Virus record (IMG/VR): IMGVR_UViG_3300045988_147517 | Location: 1-64,000 of that record | Strand: one strand, 5' to 3' | DNA: 64,000 nt | Source: a virus | In this document: positions 27,490 to 61,412 of the stretch, one piece after another | Layout of the letters: every line of letters starts with the position of its first letter | How positions within the stretch are numbered: position 1 is the first letter of the stretch | Translations under genes and position numbers: made by a program | Notes under the pieces: model-generated | The model's database searches: none | Told to the model about the DNA's origin: nothing | The model's input: only the letters and a program-made list of their open reading frames with translations

Positions 27490-28779
27490 CTAATCTTTGG
27501 CAATTCCACCTCCTTTTATAATGAGGTGGAATTGCCTTTTCCTTTCTTCTTGTAAATAGCTCATTCTAGCTTTTAATAATTTTAATTTTTTACAACTTAT
27601 ACCTGCATGAATTCTAGTTCCATCAAGTAATCTAATATCAAAATAACCTGTACTTCTTCTACCAAATATAAAGCACTCTTGGTCTTGAAATTTAACCTTG
27701 TCAAATAATCTAAAACCTTTAACAATATATGGCGCTTGGTTTAATTTCCTCCTTCCACCTTTTAGAAAATTAGCTTTATGGATTTTTCTATTATGGCATC
27801 TTACTTTTTTCTGATAGATGAAAGTTTCAAGAGGCTTTGCATTGAAATTTCCACTAATGCAATAAGCATCGTTATAGTGTTCTTTAGCCAAACCATGTTT
27901 GATGCGATTACTTTTTGTTATGTAGCCATAAGTTAATTCTACATCTTGATATACCTCTTTTAGTTTGTTATATAGCGGCCATCTCATAATTCCCATAAAG
28001 GTGGCATCATTATACTTTTTACCTCGTTTGATTTTAAAATCAATTTCTCCATTATGGTATTTCTTATGACAAGTACGGCATAAAGTAATTAGATTATTTG
28101 GAGCGTTTCCGCCTGTCTTTCGTGATTCTAGATGATGCACTTCCAACACTTTATCTTTAGACTTACCTAGACAATACCTACAAGTATGATTATCTCTAAA
28201 TAAGATATATTCTCTTGTATTCCAACCTTTCATTTCACCATTTTGGTAATCAACACCACTCATTGTTTTACCCTCAGCTTTAGCTTTAAGAAGTTGAGTA
28301 TCAAAAGACGCTACTTCTACTATTACTTTGCTAATAGGTAAAATTTTGTGAACATTTTCTATTACCTTTAAATGGCTATCAATCTTATGTCTTATTGATG
28401 GTGCTAACCACCCTTCTTTTTTAGTAGCTACACGATTATTAAATCTTGCTTTGCGATATCTTAAACGGTTTCGTCTAGCTCTTCTACTTTCTCTTCTTGT
28501 TGACAACAACTCAACAATGTCATTGCGAAGTTCAACTTCAGAACAATATAGTTCCTCTGTTTCTGTAGTTGCTGATAAACCTACGTGTTTAGAACCAGCA
28601 TCTACGCCTAAAGTAATTGGTTGGGTATAATTATTACCCTCGTAATTTAATTGAATTGTAAATGGACTACGCTTAACAATTTCAGCTTTACCATTTTTTA
28701 ATAAATGTCTCACTTTACCAAATCTATGCGTTGGCATAAGCGGTAATCCATTTTTATTTAAAACATATACTAACTGCAT
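27490..28779 (-). CDS. iscB: IscB RNA-guided nuclease (OMEGA system)
   Basis: 429 aa. PLMP motif (NGLPLMPT). RuvC-I LGVDAGSKHVG. Arg-rich bridge helix RRESRRARRNRLRYRKARF. RuvC-II VIVEVASFD. HNH EVHHLESRKTGGNAPNNLITLCRTCHKKYH. RuvC-III HYNDAY. Confidence 0.85.
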   Translation of the reverse strand: MQLVYVLNKNGLPLMPTHRFGKVRHLLKNGKAEIVKRSPFTIQLNYEGNNYTQPITLGVDAGSKHVGLSATTETEELYCSEVELRNDIVELLSTRRESRRARRNRLRYRKARFNNRVATKKEGWLAPSIRHKIDSHLKVIENVHKILPISKVIVEVASFDTQLLKAKAEGKTMSGVDYQNGEMKGWNTREYILFRDNHTCRYCLGKSKDKVLEVHHLESRKTGGNAPNNLITLCRTCHKKYHNGEIDFKIKRGKKYNDATFMGIMRWPLYNKLKEVYQDVELTYGYITKSNRIKHGLAKEHYNDAYCISGNFNAKPLETFIYQKKVRCHNRKIHKANFLKGGRRKLNQAPYIVKGFRLFDKVKFQDQECFIFGRRSTGYFDIRLLDGTRIHAGISCKKLKLLKARMSYLQEERKRQFHLIIKGGGIAKD

Positions 28780-29055
28780 TTTTTACCTAATTTAACCTAA
28801 TAAATAATTCAGCTTTAAAACTGTAATGTAGCCATCGACAATGTTATTTAAGGTTTAACGTATATATCACTATTTCTACCCCTTAAAATTGTTTAAACAT
28901 ATACCGTAGAGTAAGAGACTTGGCTAAACATCTCTTAGTACCTATTTCTTAAATAACGTAGGATATGTGTCTTATGACATTCTCCTTAGTCTAGTCAACA
29001 AGGGCTTTTTCAAGCCCCCACTTCAAGAAGGTCTATCTTGTAAGTGGTGGGTTGT
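28780..29055 (-). ncRNA. Putative IscB omegaRNA (scaffold; guide expected at its 5' end near 29055)
   Basis: A 276-nt non-coding gap lies immediately 5' of iscB on the coding strand, where IscB omegaRNAs are encoded. It contains the stem GGGCTT-gaaa-AAGCCC and other helices. Its 5' ~70 nt are conserved in the mini copy at 59677..59749. Confidence 0.6.
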
Positions 29056-32000
29056 TTACCGTCGCTCCAAAATAGAATACTCTAATAAATTATAATACGT
29101 AGTTCCATCTTTTTTATTTTTATCATATTTTTTACAGTAAATAACATCCCCTTCTTTAACTTCTCCGAAACTTTCAAGTGGAGATGGCGCTCTACGTCTC
29201 TGGACAAGGTCATACCTTCCATTGATTGGAATGGTAAACATAGATTCTTTTCCGCTACCAATAGAACGACACCATATTCTTAGCCCAAACATTTTTCCTG
29301 TGGATTTCGCTATTGCTTTCATCGTTTTAATTACATAAAGTTTTGGTCGGTCTTCCTCCTTGTCGGTTATTAGAGAAATGTATCCCAGAAATTCTTGTTG
29401 GTGCGCCATTTTTTCTGTGTAAGAAAAATCATTAACTCCCATTTCTTTTATTGCTTTTTCAGCGCCATGCAAAACATTAATGCAATCAATATTATCGTAG
29501 GATTTAGCAACACCACCTGATTTCGTAAAGCCGTTTGCATATTTTTCCATCAACGGGAATAAGTATGAATCTTCAGGGATTTTTTCCTTTTTTATTTGTT
29601 TGGCTTCTCCATATTTAAACATTTCAACAACGTATTTAATGTTCATTAATTCCTTTGCATTGCCAAAATCAGAAAAGAAATCAAGTTTAATTAATCCGTC
29701 TATCTGCCTTACATCTGCAATTCGTTCCTTTTTCATGTCAATTAATAGGTCAGCAAATGAAATATACCCTTTATGGCTCATTTTATATAGTTTATCTGCC
29801 AATTCGGCGTTCATATATTTTATAGAGCCAATACCCTTATAAATTGCCTTACTATCTTTGTCGAAAAAATATTCAGCCCTAGAATATCCAAACTTGATGC
29901 CCTTAATTTTAATACCAAATTTATTAGCGTATTGGATAATAGCGCTCGTTTTTTCTTCGTCACTACTAAAGGAATTTAGGGCGGCTGTTATAAATTCTAA
30001 AGGATAGTGATACCTTAAATATCCGATTTCATATGACGTGTAAGTATATGCGATGGCATGACTCTTATTAAAAGCATAACGAGAAGCATCCAAAATAATT
30101 TGTAAGAATGGTTCAATAATTTCCATGGCGCGATGTTCATCTAAGTCATATTTTGAAACAGCCGTTTCAATAAATCGTTTCTTTATTTCTGGGATAATAT
30201 CCTGTGTACCACCCTTATGTGCAATTTTACGCCGAACCACATCACTTTCAGATTCTGAATATCCGCAGAATTTTACTAAAAATTGCATAATCTGTTCTTG
30301 GTATACCAAATAGCCATTAGTGTCCGATAGGAGTTTGTCAATTTCGTCCCACCCATTGTTGGCTTTTTCACCAGCAGCCAATTTATTTCTATAGCTGGCC
30401 GCCGCTGGTCGAATGGCGGCGTTCGCAATAGCTACCCAATCCAACATTCGGAAATTATCATTCCATTCTTGAGCAGAAGCAACTGTTGTTGGAGAGGCAA
30501 AATTCTTTAAAAACGCGCCAGCACTGTTACTTTCAAATTGAAAAATTGCTGTGGTATCGTTTCGTATAGATGACCACACTTTTCCGTCTTCGGTATCTAT
30601 TGAATCAGCTTTTATAATTTCAATCCCTGCATTTTCACAACATGAATTAATGAGCTGTAAATTTTTAAGTCCAAGCAAATCTTCTTTTACATAATATTGA
30701 CTTTCTAATTCCTCCATATTTAACGATGTTAATCTATAAGGCGTATCAGTTGTTGTAAAACTTCCGATAACTTCATCAATACGTCTATCCGTTACGAGTT
30801 TCCCTGACGCATGTACGCCTACACTTGTGCATGTACCCCGTACAATGTCAACTAAATGGAAAACTTCTGGCTCAGAATCAATGATGTCTTGTGGGACATA
30901 AGGCTTTTTATCTTCGTCATATTCGACAGAGTTCGAAAGTTCTTGTGCATATTGAACAGTAAATCTTTTATACTGAACGTAAGGGTTGTCTTTGTCGAGA
31001 GTACCTTTCTTTCGTTCATTTTCATACATGTTGAAAAATCCACCACAGACATCTTTAATACTTCCTTTTAACTCAATAGTGTTTTCAGTCATAATAACTG
31101 CCGACTCAATCCCATCAATCTCTAAGTGTTTCCCTACAACAAATTCCTCTACCTTGTCCCTATCTTTCGACCCTATATCAATATCAATATCTGCCAAAGT
31201 GATTCTTGATGGAGACATGAAACGTGAAAAAATTAAGTTATGTTTAATAGGGTCAACTTCTGTTACGCCTAGTATGTAAAGAACTAAACTAGCAACACAA
31301 CTCCCTCTACCTAAACCAATATGGATATTATTTTTTTTACACCAATCAGCAATATACTCTTGAAGTAAAATATAGTTAGAAGCTTTACATATTTCAAATG
31401 TATCGAGTTCTTTATCAATTCTGCTTTTTAATTCATCAAAAGTATAGCGGCAATTTAAAACAGGGTGAGATTTAGCTCTATCATAAGTATGTTTTCTTAA
31501 TGTTTCAACAGGTTTATCGTATATTTTTGGATACTTAAACTCAGCATCTAAATCGAAAGGTTCAATCATTTCACTTAGAACCATTGTATTTTCTACAGCT
31601 TCTTCGACAATATTATTTGGCACGACCTCTTGTTCTTCGTAACAAATTATTAATTCGTCATAAGTTTTCCACGTCAAATCCCAACCATTTTCTTCGTCAA
31701 AATGAATCTTCTTCCGTTCTTGAAAAACCTTTCTGGCGCGCTCATGTTCTTTGTTCAAACAATGCGTATCAGTTCCCGTAATTAGCGGGATGTTATAAGA
31801 ATCGTGTAAATTTAAAAGTAATTTATTATACTCTCTTTGTTCTGGCGTATTATGATGTTGTAACTCTAAAAAACACCTATCTTTATTGGCGCTCAGGAAA
31901 TCTATGTAACTATCTACTAGTTTATTATATGCATCTAAATCGTCCCCGAATATACGTTGACGTTTTGTTTCATATCCAATAATCTCTTTCGTTTTCTTAT

Positions 32001-32475
32001 CTTTCACAGCATATCGGTTAATCTCTGCCGCCAGTGGACTGGCAATACACGCCGTTGAAACGATAATGTTCTCACTTGTATTAAACAATTCTTCAAATGT
32101 AATTCTTGGTGAATTGTAAAAATGGTTATCTCTTGTCCATGACAAACTAAATAAACGGTTTAATTCTTTAAAACCCTCATAATTACGCGCCATTAACACA
32201 CAATGGTAGTTATCTCTATGTTTGTCCTCAATCGAATAATCGTTCGTTAGATAGAATTCAGCCGCATGGATATATTTCATCCCGGCATTTTCAATTATTT
32301 TTTTTCTGGTATACCACTGTAAGATAGTGCCATGATTCGATATACCAAGTGTGACCATACCATCATCTTTTGCTTTTTCTACATAATGTTTTGCCTTTGT
32401 TACGCTATCAATTCCAGCTACAGGATTCGACAACGTATCGTGCGAATGAAAGACAGTGTATATTTTTTTACTCAT
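29056..32475 (-). CDS. dnaE: DNA polymerase III alpha subunit (DnaE-type)
   Basis: PHP domain start (IYTVFHSHDTLSN); ~1140 aa. The start was moved to the ATG at 32475, preceded by ggagg. Confidence 0.8.
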   Translation of the reverse strand: MSKKIYTVFHSHDTLSNPVAGIDSVTKAKHYVEKAKDDGMVTLGISNHGTILQWYTRKKIIENAGMKYIHAAEFYLTNDYSIEDKHRDNYHCVLMARNYEGFKELNRLFSLSWTRDNHFYNSPRITFEELFNTSENIIVSTACIASPLAAEINRYAVKDKKTKEIIGYETKRQRIFGDDLDAYNKLVDSYIDFLSANKDRCFLELQHHNTPEQREYNKLLLNLHDSYNIPLITGTDTHCLNKEHERARKVFQERKKIHFDEENGWDLTWKTYDELIICYEEQEVVPNNIVEEAVENTMVLSEMIEPFDLDAEFKYPKIYDKPVETLRKHTYDRAKSHPVLNCRYTFDELKSRIDKELDTFEICKASNYILLQEYIADWCKKNNIHIGLGRGSCVASLVLYILGVTEVDPIKHNLIFSRFMSPSRITLADIDIDIGSKDRDKVEEFVVGKHLEIDGIESAVIMTENTIELKGSIKDVCGGFFNMYENERKKGTLDKDNPYVQYKRFTVQYAQELSNSVEYDEDKKPYVPQDIIDSEPEVFHLVDIVRGTCTSVGVHASGKLVTDRRIDEVIGSFTTTDTPYRLTSLNMEELESQYYVKEDLLGLKNLQLINSCCENAGIEIIKADSIDTEDGKVWSSIRNDTTAIFQFESNSAGAFLKNFASPTTVASAQEWNDNFRMLDWVAIANAAIRPAAASYRNKLAAGEKANNGWDEIDKLLSDTNGYLVYQEQIMQFLVKFCGYSESESDVVRRKIAHKGGTQDIIPEIKKRFIETAVSKYDLDEHRAMEIIEPFLQIILDASRYAFNKSHAIAYTYTSYEIGYLRYHYPLEFITAALNSFSSDEEKTSAIIQYANKFGIKIKGIKFGYSRAEYFFDKDSKAIYKGIGSIKYMNAELADKLYKMSHKGYISFADLLIDMKKERIADVRQIDGLIKLDFFSDFGNAKELMNIKYVVEMFKYGEAKQIKKEKIPEDSYLFPLMEKYANGFTKSGGVAKSYDNIDCINVLHGAEKAIKEMGVNDFSYTEKMAHQQEFLGYISLITDKEEDRPKLYVIKTMKAIAKSTGKMFGLRIWCRSIGSGKESMFTIPINGRYDLVQRRRAPSPLESFGEVKEGDVIYCKKYDKNKKDGTTYYNLLEYSILERR

Positions 32476-32671
32476 TATTTCCTCCAACCAGCTTTTCCTC
32501 AACCTTTAAACAACGATTTAATGATTTACATTGTTCATAAATTTTGTCTGGACATGACCAGCAACAAATATCTTCCAAACATTTACAATCATTGTTTTGG
32601 CGCTCTATATTTTTACATTTTCCTTGTGGTGTTAAATATATACAATATTCAAGATTTCTTGATTTCTTCAT
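32468..32671 (-). CDS. Small Cys-rich protein (67 aa)
   Basis: Its stop overlaps the dnaE start (ATGAGTAA coupling). It contains 10 Cys residues. Confidence 0.45.
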   Translation of the reverse strand: MKKSRNLEYCIYLTPQGKCKNIERQNNDCKCLEDICCWSCPDKIYEQCKSLNRCLKVEEKLVGGNNE

Positions 32672-35712: not shown

Positions 35713-35982
35713 CTTACCACACATAGTTTCCTATGCCATCTAATATAGATGTTGTAGTCTGGACTATATCATCCGTTATTTTATAAAAATAACAGGTGGG
35801 CGCTGGACAATAAATTGCCACTTAGTCTCTGAACCTTCCCCTGTTCGGGGCTTGGATGCTGATTGCCCAATCCATACATTTTTTAACATTCACGCCTAGA
35901 TTTATTTCATTCTTACGTTGTAGTATGTATGGCTCTAAGGGGTTTCCAGCAGTTCACCCACTTTTAAATCCGCATACACTTT
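35713..35982 (-). ncRNA. Group-I-like intron 2 in nrdJ (270 nt, ORF-less)
   Basis: It interrupts the catalytic NPCAE motif. The 5' exon ends in U and the intron ends in G. No ORF is present. Splicing restores the frame exactly. Confidence 0.55.
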
Positions 35983-36322
35983 ACGGATTAACCCCACCAT
36001 ATTGAAAATCAGGGTCTTCACTTAATAAATTATAGTCATTAATTCTATCCCAGAATAATAATCCGGGTTCAGCCTGCCGCCAATTCATCTCTGCTAAACG
36101 CATAAATACATCTTGAGCATTAATTACTTTGGTAATTTCTTCTCCTGTCTCTTGACGATAATATTTTAATGTATATTCTTCATCATTGATAACAGCATTC
36201 ATAAATTCATCTGTTACTTTAATTGAGATATTTGCCTTAGTAACTTTTCCAGCCTCCGATTTTAAATCAATAAAATCTTCAAGGTCTGGATGGCTACAAT
36301 CAAGGCTAATCATCAATGCCCC
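35983..36322 (-). CDS. nrdJ: Class II ribonucleotide reductase, exon 2
   Basis: It begins GALMISLDCSHPDLEDFI, continuing ...NGRR from exon 1, and ends ...FQYGGVNP plus the first base of the Cys codon. Confidence 0.7.
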
Positions 36323-37294
36323 CAATATGGACTATCTCTTACCACTAATCTAGTGGCTCGGGCGCTAATGTAGTCTTATTGTTATCCTCAACTACTAGTC
36401 TCTGCACGTCCTATATACCTTTTACATTATATAGTTTCGCTCAGGGTTCTTGGGTCTTCCCTGAATTCACCCAATTCAAGACGCAGGGCATTAGCTTTGT
36501 TATACTTTCTATATAATACAATAAATGAATCGTTAGGATATATATAATCTAAAAATTTTAAAACATCTTTTTTGCTAGAAAATCCTAATATAAAACAATC
36601 TTCTTTTCCTTTTGGCTTTATCTTAGATGATACTCCAACCTCATCTATTAAAACATTCTGAACACCTTCTAATAAACGGTATTGAGAAGTAAATGAAATT
36701 CTTTGCCATATCCTATTTCTGTCTTTCCTTCTTCCCCAAGTAATACACCCATCTCCATCAAAAAACCCAAGAATTAAATATCTTTTAAGGTCTTTTCTTA
36801 CAATTGGCAAATGACGGCTGTTCTTTTTTCCACCATATTTATTAATATCTGTAAGTATATTTTTATTATATATTGTATATCTTGCTCTTGGGAACCTCCT
36901 AGATTCCCTATCTAAGTATGTGGTTTCATGAACATTTCCACCAATAATTTGAGATATATAATATAGTATTTCTTTATCAGCTAATGAAACAGATAACTCA
37001 ACACACTTATCTCCAATGTATCCATCCGCTAATATAAATCCTAAGATATATGCTTTTTCTGGGGTATCAATCTTATTAAACATGTATTCATTTTTATACT
37101 CAACAGGTTTATTTTTTATTAAATGTTTTAAATTAAGTTTACCTATCCAATATAAAACAGTGGTGTAGCATAATCCAACTTTTTTTCCTATTTCCCTACT
37201 AGACATTCCATCTTCTAAATATCCTTTTAATTCATTATATTCCATATATTATCTCCTACTCTATATATTTTCGGTGATTAAATTAAGCTATTTT
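36323..37294 (-). mobile_element. Group-I-like intron 1 in nrdJ carrying a LAGLIDADG homing endonuclease
   Basis: A 972-nt insertion lies between ...AQNGRR and GALM.... The 5' exon ends in U (cgt) and the intron ends in G (ttg). It contains a free-standing endonuclease ORF. Confidence 0.6.
36427..37245 (-). CDS. LAGLIDADG-family homing endonuclease with N-terminal HTH
   Basis: Two LAGLIDADG-type motifs (ILGFILADGYI and ILGFFDGDGCI). It lies inside the nrdJ intron. Confidence 0.75.
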   Translation of the reverse strand: MEYNELKGYLEDGMSSREIGKKVGLCYTTVLYWIGKLNLKHLIKNKPVEYKNEYMFNKIDTPEKAYILGFILADGYIGDKCVELSVSLADKEILYYISQIIGGNVHETTYLDRESRRFPRARYTIYNKNILTDINKYGGKKNSRHLPIVRKDLKRYLILGFFDGDGCITWGRRKDRNRIWQRISFTSQYRLLEGVQNVLIDEVGVSSKIKPKGKEDCFILGFSSKKDVLKFLDYIYPNDSFIVLYRKYNKANALRLELGEFREDPRTLSETI

Positions 37295-47059: not shown

Positions 47060-47170
47060 GATAATAAGACAAAGGCTCCCCTTATTTAGGCACATTTTCA
47101 CGCTTCTCGCTCAAGCACTACAATAAGTACAGTATCAACGAGCTATCCCCGTCCTAACAGCGGTTCTTGC
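47060..47170 (-). ncRNA. Orphan TnpB-type omegaRNA-like scaffold, copy A (with candidate 3' guide)
   Basis: Minus-strand sequence is aaccgctgttaggacggggatagctcgttgatac...ttgagcgagaagcg-tgaaaatgtgCCTAAat.... It is homologous to the scaffold 3' of tnpB. No ORF is present. Confidence 0.5.
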
Positions 47171-49676: not shown

Positions 49677-49719
49677 TTTGTTCTCCTTTTTTATATAAAT
49701 TTTAAAAATTAAATATAAT

Positions 49720-49851
49720 TCATGTTAACTTTAAACAATGGTAAAAGTCAATCAAATTTAAATACATTCTAATTTAAACACAGATTCAACGCTTCTCGCT
49801 CAATAACCTTACGGTTAAGTATCAACGAGCTAACCCCGGTTTAACCTCGGT
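49720..49851 (-). ncRNA. Stand-alone omegaRNA-like gene, copy B (scaffold + CRISPR-repeat-like segment + candidate guide)
   Basis: Minus-strand sequence is aaccgaggttaaaccggggttagctcgttgatacTTAACCgtaaGGTTAttgagcgagaagcg-ttgaat-ctgtGTTTAAattagaatgtatttaaat-ttgattgac.... A consensus promoter ends 6 nt upstream. Confidence 0.6.
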
Positions 49852-49857
49852 TCTTTG

Positions 49858-49886
49858 ATTATAACATATAATTTTTGTTATGTCAA
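49858..49886 (-). promoter_or_regulatory. Consensus sigma70-type promoter driving omegaRNA copy B
   Basis: TTGACA-taacaaaaattatatgt-TATAAT on the minus strand. The predicted start is ~49851, at the first conserved scaffold nucleotides. Confidence 0.7.
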
Positions 49887-50237: not shown

Positions 50238-50264
50238 TTTACCCCTACTTTATTTAAACATTCC

Positions 50265-50492
50265 ATTCAAATACATCTCGTGTTAAACACAAACTTTGGC
50301 ACTTGATGTCTATTTTTTCTGGAAATTAAAATTTAAATGCATCTCATGTTAAACACAAACCCCGGCATCTATTACCGGAGACAAACAAATAGTAAGATTT
50401 AAATACATCTCATGTTAAACACAAACCCTAATCGTCTATATCTGCGCCTTTTAGAATATCTAATTTAAATACATCTCATGTTAAACACAAAC
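50265..50492 (-). CRISPR. CRISPR-like mini-array: 4 x 30-bp repeats, 3 x 36-bp spacers, adjacent to tnpB
   Basis: Repeats lie at 50463-50492, 50397-50426, 50331-50360 (1 mismatch) and 50265-50294 (2 mismatches). Coding-strand consensus is GTTTGTGTTTAACATGAGATGTATTTAAAT. The period is exactly 66 bp and the spacers are unrelated to each other. Confidence 0.75.
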
Positions 50493-50602
50493 TATAGTAT
50501 TTATCTCATTCTCATTACGCTAACATTTGATGCTTCTCACTCGATAGTCTAATGACTAAGCATAAATGAGCTATCCCCGGTTTAACCTCGGTTGGTGGTA
50601 AG
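50493..50602 (-). ncRNA. TnpB omegaRNA scaffold, copy C (cis copy) plus degenerate repeat-like linker
   Basis: It starts right after the tnpB stop: cttaccaccaaccgaggttaaaccggggatagctcatttatgcTTAGTCattaGACTAtcgagtgagaagca, then tcaaa-tgttagcgtaatgagaatgagataaatac-tatag leading into repeat 1. Confidence 0.65.
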
Positions 50603-51751
50603 TTAATTTACCAGCCGCTTTCCTTCTTTTAGAATATTTTTAGCGGCATTTATATCCCTATCCTCTTTGTAGCCACAAACCGGGCATACAAAGGTTTTTT
50701 CGGATAAAATATTCTCTTCTATTACATGTTCACACTTATGGCACGTCTTTGAGCTTGGGAAAAATGTATTTACTTGTACATATTTATGGCCATATTCTTC
50801 TGCTTTATACGCTAACATTTGGCAGAAATTAAAGTACCCTATATCGGTAATAGCAGAATTAAAATTTTTCTTTGTTCTATTTAAAAACCCTTCTTTCTCT
50901 TTATTCTGTTTCATCATTTCTTGCAATTTAAGTTTCTCAACCGCAATAATTTTATTATCTCTCGCAATCTTCCTACTCAAATTATGTGCGAAATATGCTC
51001 TTTGTCTAGCAATTTTCTGATGAACTTTCGCTACTTTAATACGTTGTTTTTCGTAATTTTTACTACCACGTTGACAATGACTTAATTTGCGTTGCTCTCT
51101 GGCTAAACGTTCTTTGCTTTTCTTATAGTAGTTAGGATAATCTGGAATACTTCCTTTATTATCCACAAAGTAATCTCGTGATGAAAAATCAAGCCCGATG
51201 GATTGGGATTTCCCTTTCTTCTGTTTCATTTTAAATTCAATGCAGAAGGCAATATAGTATTCCCCTGATGGTGTCCTAGAAAGTGTTGCATCACATATTT
51301 TTGCATCATCTGGAATTGGCCTATCAACAATCATTTTGACGGTTGTTGACAATTTTGGAATTTTAACTCTATTACCTTCAATACGCAACCCATTACCGCC
51401 AACTGTATTTCTCGTTTTAAAGCTATCCCTACATCTACCACGCTTCTTAAATTTAGGAAATCCGGGCTTTTCCCCATTTTTTAATCTTCTAAAAAAGTTT
51501 TTATACGCCTGTTCTAAATCCCGCTGAACAAAATTTAAGGCATGTGCATCCACTTCTTTTAACCAAGTATTATCTGCTTTATATGAAGCGTAGCTCGTCT
51601 TTAATGACTTCCCCGTCTCTTCATAATGCTTTATTTTGTCAGCAAGCATAGCATTCCAAATCCATCTGCAAGCGCCAAATGTTTTATTTAAATATTCTCT
51701 CTGTTCTTTATTTGGGTAGATACGATATTTATAACCTCTAACTACTAACAT
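50603..51751 (-). CDS. tnpB: TnpB-family RNA-guided nuclease (382 aa), no tnpA
   Basis: N-terminus YKYRIYPNKEQREYLNKTFGACRWIWN. RuvC-I SIGLDFS, RuvC-II IIAVEKL. Zinc finger CHKCEH...CPVCGY. RuvC-III EDRDINAAKNI. Confidence 0.85.
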   Translation of the reverse strand: MLVVRGYKYRIYPNKEQREYLNKTFGACRWIWNAMLADKIKHYEETGKSLKTSYASYKADNTWLKEVDAHALNFVQRDLEQAYKNFFRRLKNGEKPGFPKFKKRGRCRDSFKTRNTVGGNGLRIEGNRVKIPKLSTTVKMIVDRPIPDDAKICDATLSRTPSGEYYIAFCIEFKMKQKKGKSQSIGLDFSSRDYFVDNKGSIPDYPNYYKKSKERLAREQRKLSHCQRGSKNYEKQRIKVAKVHQKIARQRAYFAHNLSRKIARDNKIIAVEKLKLQEMMKQNKEKEGFLNRTKKNFNSAITDIGYFNFCQMLAYKAEEYGHKYVQVNTFFPSSKTCHKCEHVIEENILSEKTFVCPVCGYKEDRDINAAKNILKEGKRLVN

Positions 51752-51779
51752 TTTCTTACCTCATCAACTTTATGTCTAT

Positions 51780-59555: not shown

Positions 59556-59749
59556 CTAATCTTTGGCAATGAAACTCCCTACTTCTATAAGTAGGAGAGG
59601 AATTGCCTTCTCCTTTCTTCCTGTAAATAACTCATTCTAGCTTTTAATAATTTTAATTTTTTACAACTTATACCCGTTAGTCTAGTCAACAAGGGCTTTT
59701 CAAGCCCCCACTTCAACAAGACCTATCTTGTAAGTAGTGGGTTATTGAC
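59556..59749 (-). mobile_element. Internally deleted (MITE-like) derivative of the IscB element
   Basis: 59556..59674 matches 27490..27603 (right end including the hairpin and the iscB 3' codons). 59677..59749 matches 28986..29059 (left end and the omegaRNA 5' part). The iscB body is absent. Confidence 0.75.
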
Positions 59750-59871
59750 TTTAAATCTCCTTTACCTTTCTTATTTTAACTGGTTTTCTTTTCTTGGGTC
59801 TACGCCTTTCTTTCAAATCTTTTTCAGCTAGGCGCTCTTCTTCTTGTTCCATAATATAATTAAAGTATTCT

Positions 59872-60405
59872 TCACTCGTTATCGGTAGATTCTTTTTCTT
59901 GTAACTCATCGTTCTTCCTAAAAATAATTAGCTTTACATGTTCGCTATCATCAAAAACTTCATGTAATATCTTACTTACAATTTTCCAATCTCCTCCACC
60001 ACATCCGCAACCTAGCTTATATGGTACTCCAATTGTCCAAATATCATCTTTTTTTGAAAAAGTAAGGGCCTCACAATGTTCTCTTAACAATATTAGTGCC
60101 TCTTTAAGCGCCCTATAATCTGTCAACCTTTCACCATTTGGGGCATGATGAAACTGGGCGAATAAATTAGCAACCAAGTCTTTTCTGCCCCCATACCGTT
60201 CCACTTCGACTATCTGAACAACGCCCATCATTGATTCAGATAGACCATATTCTTTGCAGAATTTATTATATTGCTTCAATAAATCTTTGTAAATATACCT
60301 TAAATCTCTCGAAAGTCCGGCGTGCATTTTCCCTTGACAATTTACCTGATGGGCGATAATATCAACTTTAGATTTAATTAAATCTCCATCTTTCATTTCT
60401 ACCAT
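59872..60405 (-). CDS. Macro domain (ADP-ribose binding/hydrolase) protein
   Basis: The N-terminal pattern GDLIKSKVDIIAHQVNCQGKMHAGLS and the size fit stand-alone macro domains. Confidence 0.5.
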   Translation of the reverse strand: MVEMKDGDLIKSKVDIIAHQVNCQGKMHAGLSRDLRYIYKDLLKQYNKFCKEYGLSESMMGVVQIVEVERYGGRKDLVANLFAQFHHAPNGERLTDYRALKEALILLREHCEALTFSKKDDIWTIGVPYKLGCGCGGGDWKIVSKILHEVFDDSEHVKLIIFRKNDELQEKESTDNE

Positions 60406-60406
60406 T

Positions 60407-60625
60407 TTAATCCCTCATAAGCCTTTTAATATCTCTTACATTCAAACTCAATACTATATTCACATTATCAGGCGGATTCATATTATTTACAAACCGCTTC
60501 AAACACCCAGTCGAACAAAAATAATGGCCGTGCGACCGCACCCCGTTATTGGAGATTTCTTGAATCGTCAACTGAATCATATTACAGGTACAACCCGCTT
60601 CTCCACTACAAAACTCACACTTCAT
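60407..60625 (-). CDS. Small Cys-rich protein
   Basis: The ATG at 60625, 8 nt after aaggag, is preferred over the GTG at 60634. Translation begins MKCEFCSGEAGCTC.... Confidence 0.5.
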   Translation of the reverse strand: MKCEFCSGEAGCTCNMIQLTIQEISNNGVRSHGHYFCSTGCLKRFVNNMNPPDNVNIVLSLNVRDIKRLMRD

Positions 60626-60637
60626 AATATTCACTCC

Positions 60638-60730
60638 TTAGTTAATTAAAATACCGCCAACATATTCAATATATTCGTATGCCGCCTTTGGCGATTCCAC
60701 AACATCATTTTTGCCAATCGTTTCCCAATT
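60638..60730 (-). pseudogene. Displaced, diverged duplicate of the last 30 codons of gene 60826..61248
   Basis: It translates in frame to NWETIGKNDVVESPKAAYEYIEYVGGILIN*. The functional end reads SWDAIAKDDVIESPEKAYEYIETVGGILIN*. It has no start codon and lies immediately 3' of omegaRNA copy D. Confidence 0.65.
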
Positions 60731-60815
60731 TAGGTGTACTAATGTACTTCTCACTCGATAGCATAGCTAAGCATAAATGAGCTAACCCCGTCCTAACAGC
60801 GGTTATTGTTGGTGC
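60705..60815 (-). ncRNA. Orphan TnpB-type omegaRNA-like scaffold, copy D (candidate guide = displaced gene fragment)
   Basis: Minus-strand sequence is caccaacaataaccgctgttaggacggggttagctcatttatgcTTAGCtatGCTAtcgagtgagaagta-cattagtacaCCTAAat-tgggaaacgattgg.... Confidence 0.5.
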
Positions 60816-60825
60816 TATATAATTA

Positions 60826-61248
60826 TTAATTGATTAATATGCCGCCAACAGTTTCAATATACTCATAGGCTTTTTCAGGCGATTCTATAACATCATCTTT
60901 AGCAATCGCATCCCAAGAATATTTACCCGCATATCGGGTAAAAGCCTTTTGAAAATCAACACCTTTTTTATTTTTATACAATACAATTTCATCCCACATT
61001 CTTTGACTACTCACCACAATATTATCATGCGCCATGTTTACTATTGTATTCGGCCCCATAACTCTATACCCTTTAACGTCATGCGGGATTGTCCCAATGC
61101 CATGGCAATAATGACAAACACTTTGTAAAAGGGGGTATCCCGCTTTTAAACCACGAGCATACCCCTTACCACCACATTTCGGGCAACATACTTCATCTAC
61201 GCGAAACGTTCCTTCTTTAATATAATATACTTCGTCTCCTAGTTCCAA
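60826..61248 (-). CDS. Protein with DnaJ-type CxxCxGxG zinc-finger repeats (140 aa)
   Basis: Motifs CPKCGGKG and CHYCHGIG. TTG start after aaggaggg. Confidence 0.5.
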   Translation of the reverse strand: MELGDEVYYIKEGTFRVDEVCCPKCGGKGYARGLKAGYPLLQSVCHYCHGIGTIPHDVKGYRVMGPNTIVNMAHDNIVVSSQRMWDEIVLYKNKKGVDFQKAFTRYAGKYSWDAIAKDDVIESPEKAYEYIETVGGILIN

Positions 61249-61275: not shown

Positions 61276-61350
61276 TGGTGCGGGGACTGGGAATCGAACC
61301 CAGTTTTCAGGCGTATAAGACCCGCGCACTAACCGATGTACTATCCCCGT
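61276..61350 (-). tRNA. tRNA-Ile (anticodon UAU), CCA encoded
   Basis: Hand-folded cloverleaf: acceptor ACGGGGA/TCCCCGC (A1-C72 mismatch), D arm GTAC-ATCGGTTA-GTGC, anticodon arm CGGGT-CTTATAC-GCCTG, T arm CTGGG-TTCGATT-CCCAG, then ACCA. Confidence 0.75.
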
Positions 61351-61383: not shown

Positions 61384-61412
61384 ATTATAACATACTGTTG
61401 GCGCTTTGTCAA
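61384..61412 (-). promoter_or_regulatory. Consensus sigma70-type promoter upstream of the tRNA (AAGCGCCAA motif in the spacer)
   Basis: TTGACA-aagcgccaacagtatgt-TATAAT on the minus strand. It overlaps the SprT-like stop and lies ~30 nt before the tRNA 5' end. Confidence 0.7.

Follow-up and report, generated by a model that had tools for sequence, protein, structure and literature searches.

TnpB and its omegaRNA are understood as a system that keeps a transposon at its site in the bacterial chromosome, and homing by TnpB and omegaRNA in insertion sequences (IS) of the IS200/IS605 family is said to have been described by Meers in 2023. A 2019 study by Medvedeva reportedly places virus-borne mini-CRISPR arrays in interviral conflicts, and in insects Cas9 has been engineered into the gene drives HomeR and ClvR. 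The present analysis concerns a 64,000-nt stretch of an uncultivated phage genome (IMG/VR record IMGVR_UViG_3300045988_147517, positions 1 to 64,000; hereafter the window) and, within it, one of four omegaRNA scaffold copies, copy D, which lies in the 3′ end of a conserved phage gene. At this locus the working 3′ end of the gene (F-end) is followed by a short linker, by scaffold D and by a displaced, start-less duplicate of the same 3′ end (D-end), the first nucleotides of which occupy the position of a TnpB guide. Judged from its sequence, copy D is a real, non-autonomous, single-guide TnpB omegaRNA cassette within the gene's 3′ end, and it carries a rescue gene end.

In IS200/IS605 elements, scaffolds of this class are found 3′ of tnpB, with the DNA that abuts the 3′ end of the scaffold as guide (Karvelis 2021, PMC8612924; reviewed in PMC13565253); the guide thus records the uninterrupted site, and a break there would be repaired from the element-bearing copy. 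The D unit shares this logic but has no tnpA, no hairpin left end (LE) or right end (RE) and no tnpB, sits inside coding sequence together with a replacement gene end, and has ATTCT at its left junction, in contrast to the TTGAT at the tnpB unit of the window. The target differs as well, being presumably a rival phage's allele for D and the sister chromosome after excision for IS200/IS605. Experiments have shown that TnpB can drive IS copies from one plasmid copy to another without TnpA (bioRxiv 10.1101/2025.02.20.638934), and "transposon non-restorative homing" into co-infecting phages has been raised as a theoretical possibility only (PMC13565253). The plasmid IS gene drive is like the action proposed here in its RNA-guided cutting of element-free homologous molecules in the same cell and in its spread by recombination without TnpA; it involves whole IS elements on plasmids, whereas the D locus is a guide-only cassette in a phage, with a rescue copy of the interrupted gene, features for which no precedent was found among the papers searched.

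The free-standing homing endonucleases of T-even phages, SegF, SegG and MobE, are responsible for intronless homing and localized marker exclusion (Belle 2002, cited in PMC13565253). The likeness to the action proposed for the D locus lies in a phage nuclease that cuts a conserved gene of a co-infecting relative, a carrier that is resistant by virtue of substitutions, and co-conversion of flanking markers with mosaic divergence beside the element. Unlike these systems, the D locus would rely on recognition by RNA, with a nuclease gene that lies at a distance of 9 kb and would act for several guide loci; recognition by RNA means that a DNA copy of the target must stay beside the scaffold, which explains the displaced duplicate. 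Virus-borne mini-CRISPR arrays (reviewed in PMC11656645) similarly carry a few guides that match genes of close relatives and mismatch their own alleles, but they depend on host Cas proteins and standard repeats, whereas the D locus has a full omegaRNA scaffold, a phage TnpB and, in place of an acquired spacer, a displaced gene end as its guide.

TranC, an intermediate between TnpB and Cas12 (Jin 2025, Cell; PDB 9jfo LaTranC), has a counterpart in the window at locus C, where tnpB is followed by a scaffold resembling a trans-activating CRISPR RNA (tracr-like) and a 4-repeat array; the same RNA, in its unsplit single-guide form, is represented by copies D and A. The window protein is nearer to ISDra2 TnpB (E 6.5e-58) than to LaTranC (E 7e-18), and D, unlike CRISPR-Cas type V and TranC, has no repeat and an unsplit single-guide RNA. 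The D cassette is neither a canonical IS nor a CRISPR array, and none of the papers covered by a full-text literature search describes an omegaRNA cassette of a phage in which a gene end is duplicated or replaced by a rescue copy. The design of HomeR and ClvR is similar in pairing a guide against a gene with a recoded, cleavage-resistant replacement of the targeted part at the target site; the D cassette, a putative drive, differs from them in being natural, phage-borne and TnpB-based.

Results

Anatomy and Polarity of the D Locus

All genes near the D locus and all of its elements are on the minus strand. The interrupted gene (60826..61248) encodes a conserved 140-aa protein that ends ...YSWDAIAKDDVIESPEKAYEYIETVGGILIN*, with its stop codon at 60828..60826. 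Its F-end, a functional replacement 3′ end comprising codons W112..N140 plus the stop (60826..60915), has 76% nucleotide identity to the D-end and goes with the cassette in all relatives that carry it. The stop codon and the scaffold are separated by a 21-nt linker, TAATTATATAGCACCAACAAT (60805..60825), which is missing from the empty site of the relative L020 and differs at one position from that of the relative L001. The 77-nt scaffold D follows (60728..60804), ending CCTAAAT and supported by covariance model, covariation and pseudoknot register, and is succeeded directly by the D-end (60638..60727), 29 start-less codons plus a stop, in frame, which duplicate the F-end. The D-end begins TGGGAAACG..., translates as WETIGKNDVVESPKAAYEYIEYVGGILIN* and retains the native overlap of its stop with the Shine-Dalgarno (SD) sequence of the next gene; AAGGAG and that gene come after it. 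The two ends agree at 68/90 nt and 21/29 aa (22/30 with the stop), and the chance of at least 68 matches in 90 at the local base composition is ~8e-21. An earlier note, made by reading the letters of the window, had described the scaffold as lying about 20 nt past the stop and as followed by a recoded copy without a start, with 21 of 29 aligned residues identical; its layout, coordinates and counts were reproduced on recomputation, the spacing being exactly 21 nt. The arrangement recurs base for base in independent assemblies from other samples (L027, ENA; L028, Logan) and is therefore not an assembly chimera.

The direction of the change is given by L020, in which the gene end is uninterrupted (...ATTCTAATTAATTAAGGAGGAAGTATTATGAAG, no scaffold) and the stop overlaps the SD sequence of the next gene (ATTAATTAAGGAGG...ATG). 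This is the context of the D-end, so that F-end, linker and scaffold are the added segment, in agreement with the earlier note, which had taken the D-end for the ancestral end and the F-end plus scaffold for the incoming one. Every relative other than L020 that is sequenced across the site has the cassette at the identical position, and relatives with the duplication but no scaffold, which that note had named as evidence against its view, were looked for among the relatives examined and none was seen. Four states of the locus occur: (i) the empty site (L020); (ii) the full 90-nt D-end after CCTAAAT (the window); (iii) only ~30 nt of the D-end after CCTAAAT, GTTGACATGGTATTTTAATTAACTAAGGAG (L040); and (iv) state (iii) plus a 54-nt insert, which is the commonest lineage (L001, L018, L019, L021, L022, L026, L037-39, L042, and L043).

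Two further observations concern the duplication junction, TATTCT|TGGG. A perfect 8-bp hairpin in coding sequence, TTTACCCG-ATATG-CGGGTAAA (60922-60942, minus strand), ends 6 nt before it; the hairpin has one mismatch in L001 and may be due to chance. In one contig (L041:349-365), a TCT to TAT change (S111Y) falls at junction position −2.

Age of the Two Gene Ends

Gene bodies of different lineages have ~94% nucleotide identity. From codon 112 onward, identity of the window F-end to L001, L020, and L023 falls to 73-82% (Fisher p 1e-3 to 1e-7), and that between the tails of L001 and L023 reaches up to 91%. The proportion of synonymous differences (pS) is 0.41-0.63 in the tail when the window F-end is compared with L001, L020, L023, and its own D-end. 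The bodies give 0.21-0.31, and tail pS is raised in 3 of 4 comparisons (p 0.004-0.01), the exception being window versus L001 (p = 0.27). Over all tail comparisons, pS ranges from 0.29 to 0.79; the non-synonymous divergence (dN) from codon 112 onward is 0.04-0.21. The highest of the four values, 0.63, is that between the F-end and the D-end of the window itself (p = 0.005). Because synonymous and non-synonymous differences are both raised in the tail, the split between F-end and D-end predates the split of the lineages, and the pattern fits two old alleles that were brought together, not a duplication in place.

The D-end has no internal stop or frameshift, and its differences from the F-end of L001 are mostly synonymous (Sd 9, Nd 3), a kind of divergence that indicates a working coding allele until recently. 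Of 16 differences between the F-ends of the window and L001, 14 fall in the first 46 nt (p = 0.002), a stretch that includes the guide-matching site, and the 3′ half of the F-end together with the linker is nearly identical in window-type and L001-type phages. The F-end of L001 looks recombinant, with a 5′ half like the D-end and a 3′ half like the window F-end.

The Scaffold and Its Guide Register

The four related scaffold copies of the window are all on the minus strand, and a covariance model finds exactly these (71-77 bits; next match 12 bits): A (47165..47103), B (49852..49792), C (50593..50533, 9 nt past the stop of tnpB), and the core of D (60804..60747; 71 bits, E 5e-16). Scaffold D contains a mini hairpin, GTAC-ATTA-GTAC, and two pseudoknot strands, TTAGG on the 5′ side (60796..60792) and CCTAA on the 3′ side (60734..60730), the latter followed by AT. 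The same core stands directly 3′ of TnpB open reading frames (ORFs), encoding proteins with 38-41% identity, in seven unrelated viral contigs (L003, L004, L005, L009, L010, L014, and L015). In an alignment of 19 sequences, 95% of the cells in three helices are paired and 10/14 pairs have changes on both sides, a value that 0/500 shuffles reach; slid controls give 32-48% pairing. The minimum free energy (MFE) fold of D alone is no better than that of shuffled sequences (z = −0.9), and the structural case for the scaffold therefore rests on covariation instead. No Rfam family was found to cover scaffold D, whether gathering thresholds or a permissive E-value were applied, the matches lying elsewhere in the window (HEARO, group I intron, tRNA), and a pattern scan of metagenome and genome contigs for scaffold D gave no match.

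In canonical scaffolds, the loop formed by nt 9-15 is the complement of a 3′ strand, and exactly 2 nt intervene between that strand and the copy-specific flank. The covarying canonical pairs are GAACTAC/GTAGTTC+AC, GACATAC/GTATGTC+AC, and GGCGCAC/GTGCGTC+AC, and the equivalent in D is TTAGG/CCTAA+AT; this register makes the guide start at the T of TGGGAAAC (60727). By pseudoknot homology, then, the guide position is the first 20 nt of the D-end, TGGGAAACGATTGGCAAAAA (60708..60727, minus strand), and the register covers the displaced fragment that the earlier note had singled out as the guide. The anatomy and polarity of the locus, the membership of D in the RNA family and the guide register are all held with high confidence.

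Upstream of the scaffold, unit D consists of coding sequence and the 21-nt linker, without an LE hairpin end. A derivation of the linker from the junction between the tnpB 3′ end and its scaffold (shared GCGGC..AATTAA..CACCAAC) was considered and dropped, the similarity being too short to rely on. Linker and scaffold together differ at 4/98 nt between the window and L001; for synonymous sites of the gene body beside them the figure is 19/69 (p = 2e-5). The low divergence of linker and scaffold argues, at the level of sequence, for either selection on the RNA or recent spread. Among the four changes is TTAGG to TTGGG, under which G·U pairs preserve the pseudoknot and which would also permit pairing with the TTTAA of the second module described below.

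Guide D, the Resident Allele and a Second Guide Module

The sequence at the guide position is tgggaaacgattggcaaaaatg, and its resident counterpart is tgggatgcgattgctaaagatg. Over the first 20 nt, the resident end of the window, TGGGATGCGATTGCTAAAGA, mismatches guide D at positions 6, 7, 14, 15, and 19, of which 6 and 7 are seed positions. The proposal that the resident copy had diverged at the guide site is thereby borne out (five mismatches in 20, two of them in the seed), and the difference between the carrier allele and the sequence presumably recognised would amount to self-immunity at the sequence level. The functional end of L001 mismatches the guide at 9, 12, and 15, and the empty-site allele of L020 at 9, 12, 13, 14, and 20. 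Comparison of related loci for uninterrupted alleles matching the D-end thus recovered an uninterrupted allele, that of L020, but none that matches guide D exactly.

The 54-nt insert of the commonest relatives is colinear with the 3′ third of a scaffold: it contains the 3′ strand of a helix, GAGTAGGAAG, a mini hairpin, a pseudoknot strand, TATTTAAAT, and then a guide, TGTAATATGATTCAGTTGAC. A description of the insert as "spacer + repeat + spacer" was discarded in favor of this alignment, in which one guide follows the 3′ third of a second scaffold. This guide and the next gene of the window agree at 20/20 positions (60586..60567), and the relative's own allele, TGCAATATGATTCAGCTGAC, has two mismatches to it. 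All three bases of the codon just 5′ of the relative's own site are changed, ACC to GTA (T13V), which makes its flank GTGTA; T13 is found in both the empty-site phage and the window, and V13 is restricted to the lineage that carries the guide. With this pair of guide and recoded allele, the pattern seen at D, in which the guide equals another allele and the resident is recoded, recurs at the next gene. The "old allele" for the second guide exists uninterrupted in a co-circulating phage, namely that of the window. The idea that such cassettes are aimed at phages with the old allele consequently divides: the guide at the D locus of the relative has its exact match in the window, and guide D itself has none. 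A phage carrying the second guide module inside the next gene itself was searched for and not found.

TnpB, Its Boundaries and the Other Guide Loci

The sole candidate effector for scaffolds A-D is the product of tnpB (50603..51751, minus strand), a 382-aa protein with Pfam matches to HTH_OrfB_IS605, OrfB_IS605, and Cas12f1-like TNB. It aligns end to end with ISDra2 TnpB (8h1j) at the E-value given above, with the GLDFS, IAVEKL, and DRDINAA motifs aligned and the D/E/D regions present. The gene is intact in the window and in L036. No tnpA is adjacent to tnpB, though no window-wide search for tnpA was made.

The unit that comprises tnpB and the greater part of scaffold C is polymorphic for presence and absence, with its left boundary exactly at TTGAT (window 51760-51775 and 50515-50525; L007:430-445; L036:280-296). 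The left junction reads TTGAT|GAGGTAAGAAAATG... in the window and L036 and TTGAT|TTAGTATAATGAG (TTGAT|TTAG...) in the tnpB-less L007. Only 13 nt separate TTGAT from the start of tnpB, so that there is no LE there. TTGAT is the target-adjacent motif (TAM) of ISDra2 (Karvelis 2021, PMC8612924). Protospacers for the array spacers and for guides A and B were sought in the collected sequences and in viral and genome collections; none was found, and no TAM can therefore be inferred from them. Two other routes to a TAM were set aside, one from the two target flanks (TTCT and TACC), which is too thin, and one from the LE/TAM of distant canonical IS copies (which looks like TTTAA/TTAA(A/C), not TTGAT), which is not transferable to the window TnpB.

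Scaffold C (region 50251-50597, minus strand) lacks the terminal hairpin and pseudoknot strand; it has a tracr-like tail followed by four 30-nt repeats, GTTTGTGTTTAACATGAGATGTATTTAAAT, with 36-nt spacers (array 50251-50492). The 3′ end of the repeat, TTTAA+AT, provides the pseudoknot strand for the TTAAA loop of scaffolds B and C. Locus C thus resembles TranC in form, pairing a TnpB with a guide RNA that is split and with a CRISPR-like mini-array, though the protein is closest to ISDra2 TnpB; no cas1 or cas2 was found near the array. The spacers are wholly different among close relatives (window 50251-50600, L036:1440-1790, L007:440-620), and repeats and flanks are conserved, which indicates spacer turnover as far as the sequences go.

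At locus B (49700-49870, minus strand), a consensus promoter of its own, TTGACA-17-TATAAT, is placed to start transcription at the first base of the scaffold; in the window the scaffold is joined to a single repeat-like unit with a 19-nt spacer, and a relative (L007:960-1290) has a tracr-like tail, 3 repeats and 2 spacers. In cassette A (47083-47165, minus strand), the guide position, AAGGGGAGCCTTTGTCTTAT, covers the SD sequence and TTG start of the next small gene, and there is a TTGAT 48 nt upstream of its scaffold; L007 and L008 have an identical cassette. Examination for a footprint like that of D showed cassette A to be intergenic, with no coding duplication.

The Host Gene and Its Surroundings

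The window is part of a ~119-kb uncultivated phage genome and encodes tail-fibre proteins, DNA polymerase III alpha, DnaB, primase, ribonucleotide reductase and an integrase-family protein; in a distant-mode blastn search of GenBank phages, the locus had no match. The 140-aa ORF has a zinc-ribbon-like CxxC motif region, to which its weak matches to Pfam DnaJ_CXXCXGXG and to Q-like PHROG are confined. Its proteins form a single 90% cluster of 13 sequence variants, in which residues 1-112 are nearly invariant and the last 28 variable, and codons 1-111 are under strong purifying selection (between lineages, body dN ~0.01 and synonymous divergence, dS, 0.24-0.39). The next gene (60407..60634, minus strand) is an ORF of 72 aa from the ATG at 60625 (75 aa over the full ORF). 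A consensus σ70-type promoter, TTGACA-17-TATAAT with TG (61384..61412, minus strand), lies upstream of a tRNA-Ile gene and the 140-aa gene; a read-through transcript that would be processed into omegaRNA D probably originates there. The tRNA-Ile (anticodon TAT; 61276-61350, minus strand) stands directly upstream of the 140-aa gene behind this perfect consensus, and the promoter motif, with a GCGCC-containing flank, recurs at several sites in the window (repeat families D6 and D7).

The phage is also rich in homing elements of other sorts, with IscB/HEARO, a group I intron and an ORF of the LAGLIDADG type, which brings the homing-type kinds to at least four. IscB (RRXRR + HNH, 429 aa; 27490-29059, minus strand) has a full HEARO RNA upstream (Rfam 137 bits), whose start coincides with the stop codon of the gene for DNA polymerase III alpha (29056-32502), so that the IscB guide position is formed by the last polymerase codons. 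A miniature IscB element of ~195 nt (59556-59750, minus strand), made of the first ~80 nt of HEARO and ~110 nt around the iscB 3′ end, sits right after the stop (TAA) of a 52-aa gene, where L001 has no insertion (L001:6488-6490); the 180 nt at 59741-59920 beside it are 100% identical in the window and L001, and the surroundings are 60-90% identical. The group I intron (Rfam 68 bits; 35739-36020) and the LAGLIDADG endonuclease ORF (36427-37245), both on the minus strand, lie in or next to the ribonucleotide reductase gene.

Discussion

The D locus can be read as a natural counterpart of a "home-and-rescue" drive, in which a guide against a gene's 3′ end travels with a cleavage-resistant replacement of that end; the case for and against this is evenly balanced. 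An added segment of replacement 3′ end, 21-nt linker and 77-nt scaffold would have displaced the original 3′ end downstream, and since the D-end directly abuts the scaffold, its first ~20 nt would be transcribed as the guide. The transcript starting at 61412 would be processed into omegaRNA D and loaded into the phage's own TnpB; TnpB is known to process its own transcript (PMC10278001). In a co-infected cell, the complex would cut related genomes whose allele matches the D-end, and the break would either eliminate the rival or be repaired from the cassette-bearing genome, with the gene body on one side and the D-end and next gene on the other as repair arms, so that the cassette would be copied in by homing with co-conversion. 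The carrier would be protected in that its working end differs at the seed and the guide's own DNA copy is preceded by the end of the scaffold, not by the gene flank. That the cassette, with TnpB, does cut rival alleles in co-infection, and is then copied in or removes the rival, is a proposition that could go either way on the sequence comparisons and analogies given here; expression, TnpB loading, TAM compatibility, cleavage and conversion are steps that we infer.

Several observations weigh against the home-and-rescue proposal. Guide D has no exact counterpart among the natural alleles seen, each of which departs from it at positions 9 and 12, and scanning viral and metagenome contigs for the exact pattern of a guide D target gave nothing. 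The 5′ flank of the presumed target, which is also the D junction, is ATTCT and that of the target of the relative's guide is GTACC; neither is TTGAT, and the TAM requirement may go unsatisfied, or the guides may not act through cutting that depends on a TAM. At least one relative lineage (L007) has no tnpB at its locus, which means that the cassette persists without a resident nuclease. No promoter-like site was found directly upstream of scaffold D on the minus strand, nor any dedicated promoter, and RNA D would therefore need to be processed from the operon transcript. A sliding identity profile of the window against L001 has no clear peak centered on the cassette, and recent spread is accordingly not demonstrated by it. 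The commonest relatives have lost most of the D-end, and in two contigs from different samples a TGGGAA to TGGTAA change creates a stop right after W112 (L018:1107 and L019:1126); the tail may thus be dispensable, which would weaken the rescue argument. These two changes and that in L041 may be escape changes or simply decay.

The principal rival explanation holds that the locus is an inert scar, a decayed TnpB/omegaRNA insertion that was patched by recombination with another allele, so that the "guide" is a chance neighbor with no current target or cleavage. It draws on many of the same facts, namely the absence of an exact natural target, the ATTCT flank where TTGAT would be expected, the deletion or replacement of the D-end in most relatives, the missing tnpB of L007 and the lack of a promoter belonging to D. 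It accounts poorly for a linker and scaffold ~7x more conserved than neighboring synonymous sites, with the pseudoknot retained, for a D-end free of stops and frameshifts whose substitutions are coding-like, and for the intact tnpB of the window and L036; nor does it predict that a guide equal to another allele, facing a recoded resident, should appear again at the next gene with a 20/20 match and a triple flank substitution. A scar is accordingly possible but doubtful.

Alternatively, the locus might serve exclusion only, as a one-spacer virus-borne mini-CRISPR that destroys rival genomes, a weapon in superinfection or competition, without copying itself, the duplication being a spacer acquired from a rival or ancestral allele. 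The exact guide match across lineages, the CRISPR-like mini-array by tnpB with its wholly different spacers in close relatives, and the lack of an identity peak or co-conversion tract centered on the cassette are what this explanation would lead one to expect. It is nevertheless improbable: the cassette lies exactly at its own target site with homology on both sides, so that any break repaired from the carrier would copy it; the 3′ half of the F-end and the linker are common to lineages whose gene bodies are 6% different; and the F-end of L001 has the recombinant look, half D-end-like and half window-like, described above.

A very improbable account is that the last 90 nt were duplicated in tandem in place, that the scaffold was inserted between the copies, and that these diverged later, with no foreign allele or homing history. 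The copies are indeed colinear, adjacent and in the same frame, but their mutual pS of 0.63 exceeds the 0.21-0.31 of the bodies of separate lineages (p = 0.005), which makes the copies older than the lineages, and no relative has the duplication without the scaffold. An assembly artefact, in which two alleles of a mixed population were joined in one contig, would be suggested by the co-occurrence of the alleles in samples of the same study, and is practically dismissed by the identical arrangement in independent ENA, Logan and JGI assemblies, with contigs of ~119 kb.

A wider reading, which is tentative and falls short of the home-and-rescue proposal for D itself in probability, would join the loci into one modular RNA-guided "home-and-rescue" drive. 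Its omegaRNA cassettes would each combine a resistant replacement end with a displaced end as guide, and one TnpB would serve all of them as well as the CRISPR-like array; cassettes would recombine between loci, as the second scaffold module stacked behind D in relatives may illustrate; co-circulating lineages would target each other; and tnpB-less lineages may use the nuclease of a co-infecting rival.

If the home-and-rescue proposal is true, evolution has reached the design principle of synthetic rescue drives in a guide-only phage cassette that carries its own replacement gene end, and RNA-guided homing would be extended to competition of phage against phage. The local hot spot of divergence at the gene's 3′ end, synonymous sites included, would then be explained as escape from a nucleic-acid-guided weapon. 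With unsplit single-guide and tracr-plus-array forms of the RNA in one genome, alongside one ISDra2-like TnpB, the step from TnpB to Cas12 becomes testable in a single natural system.

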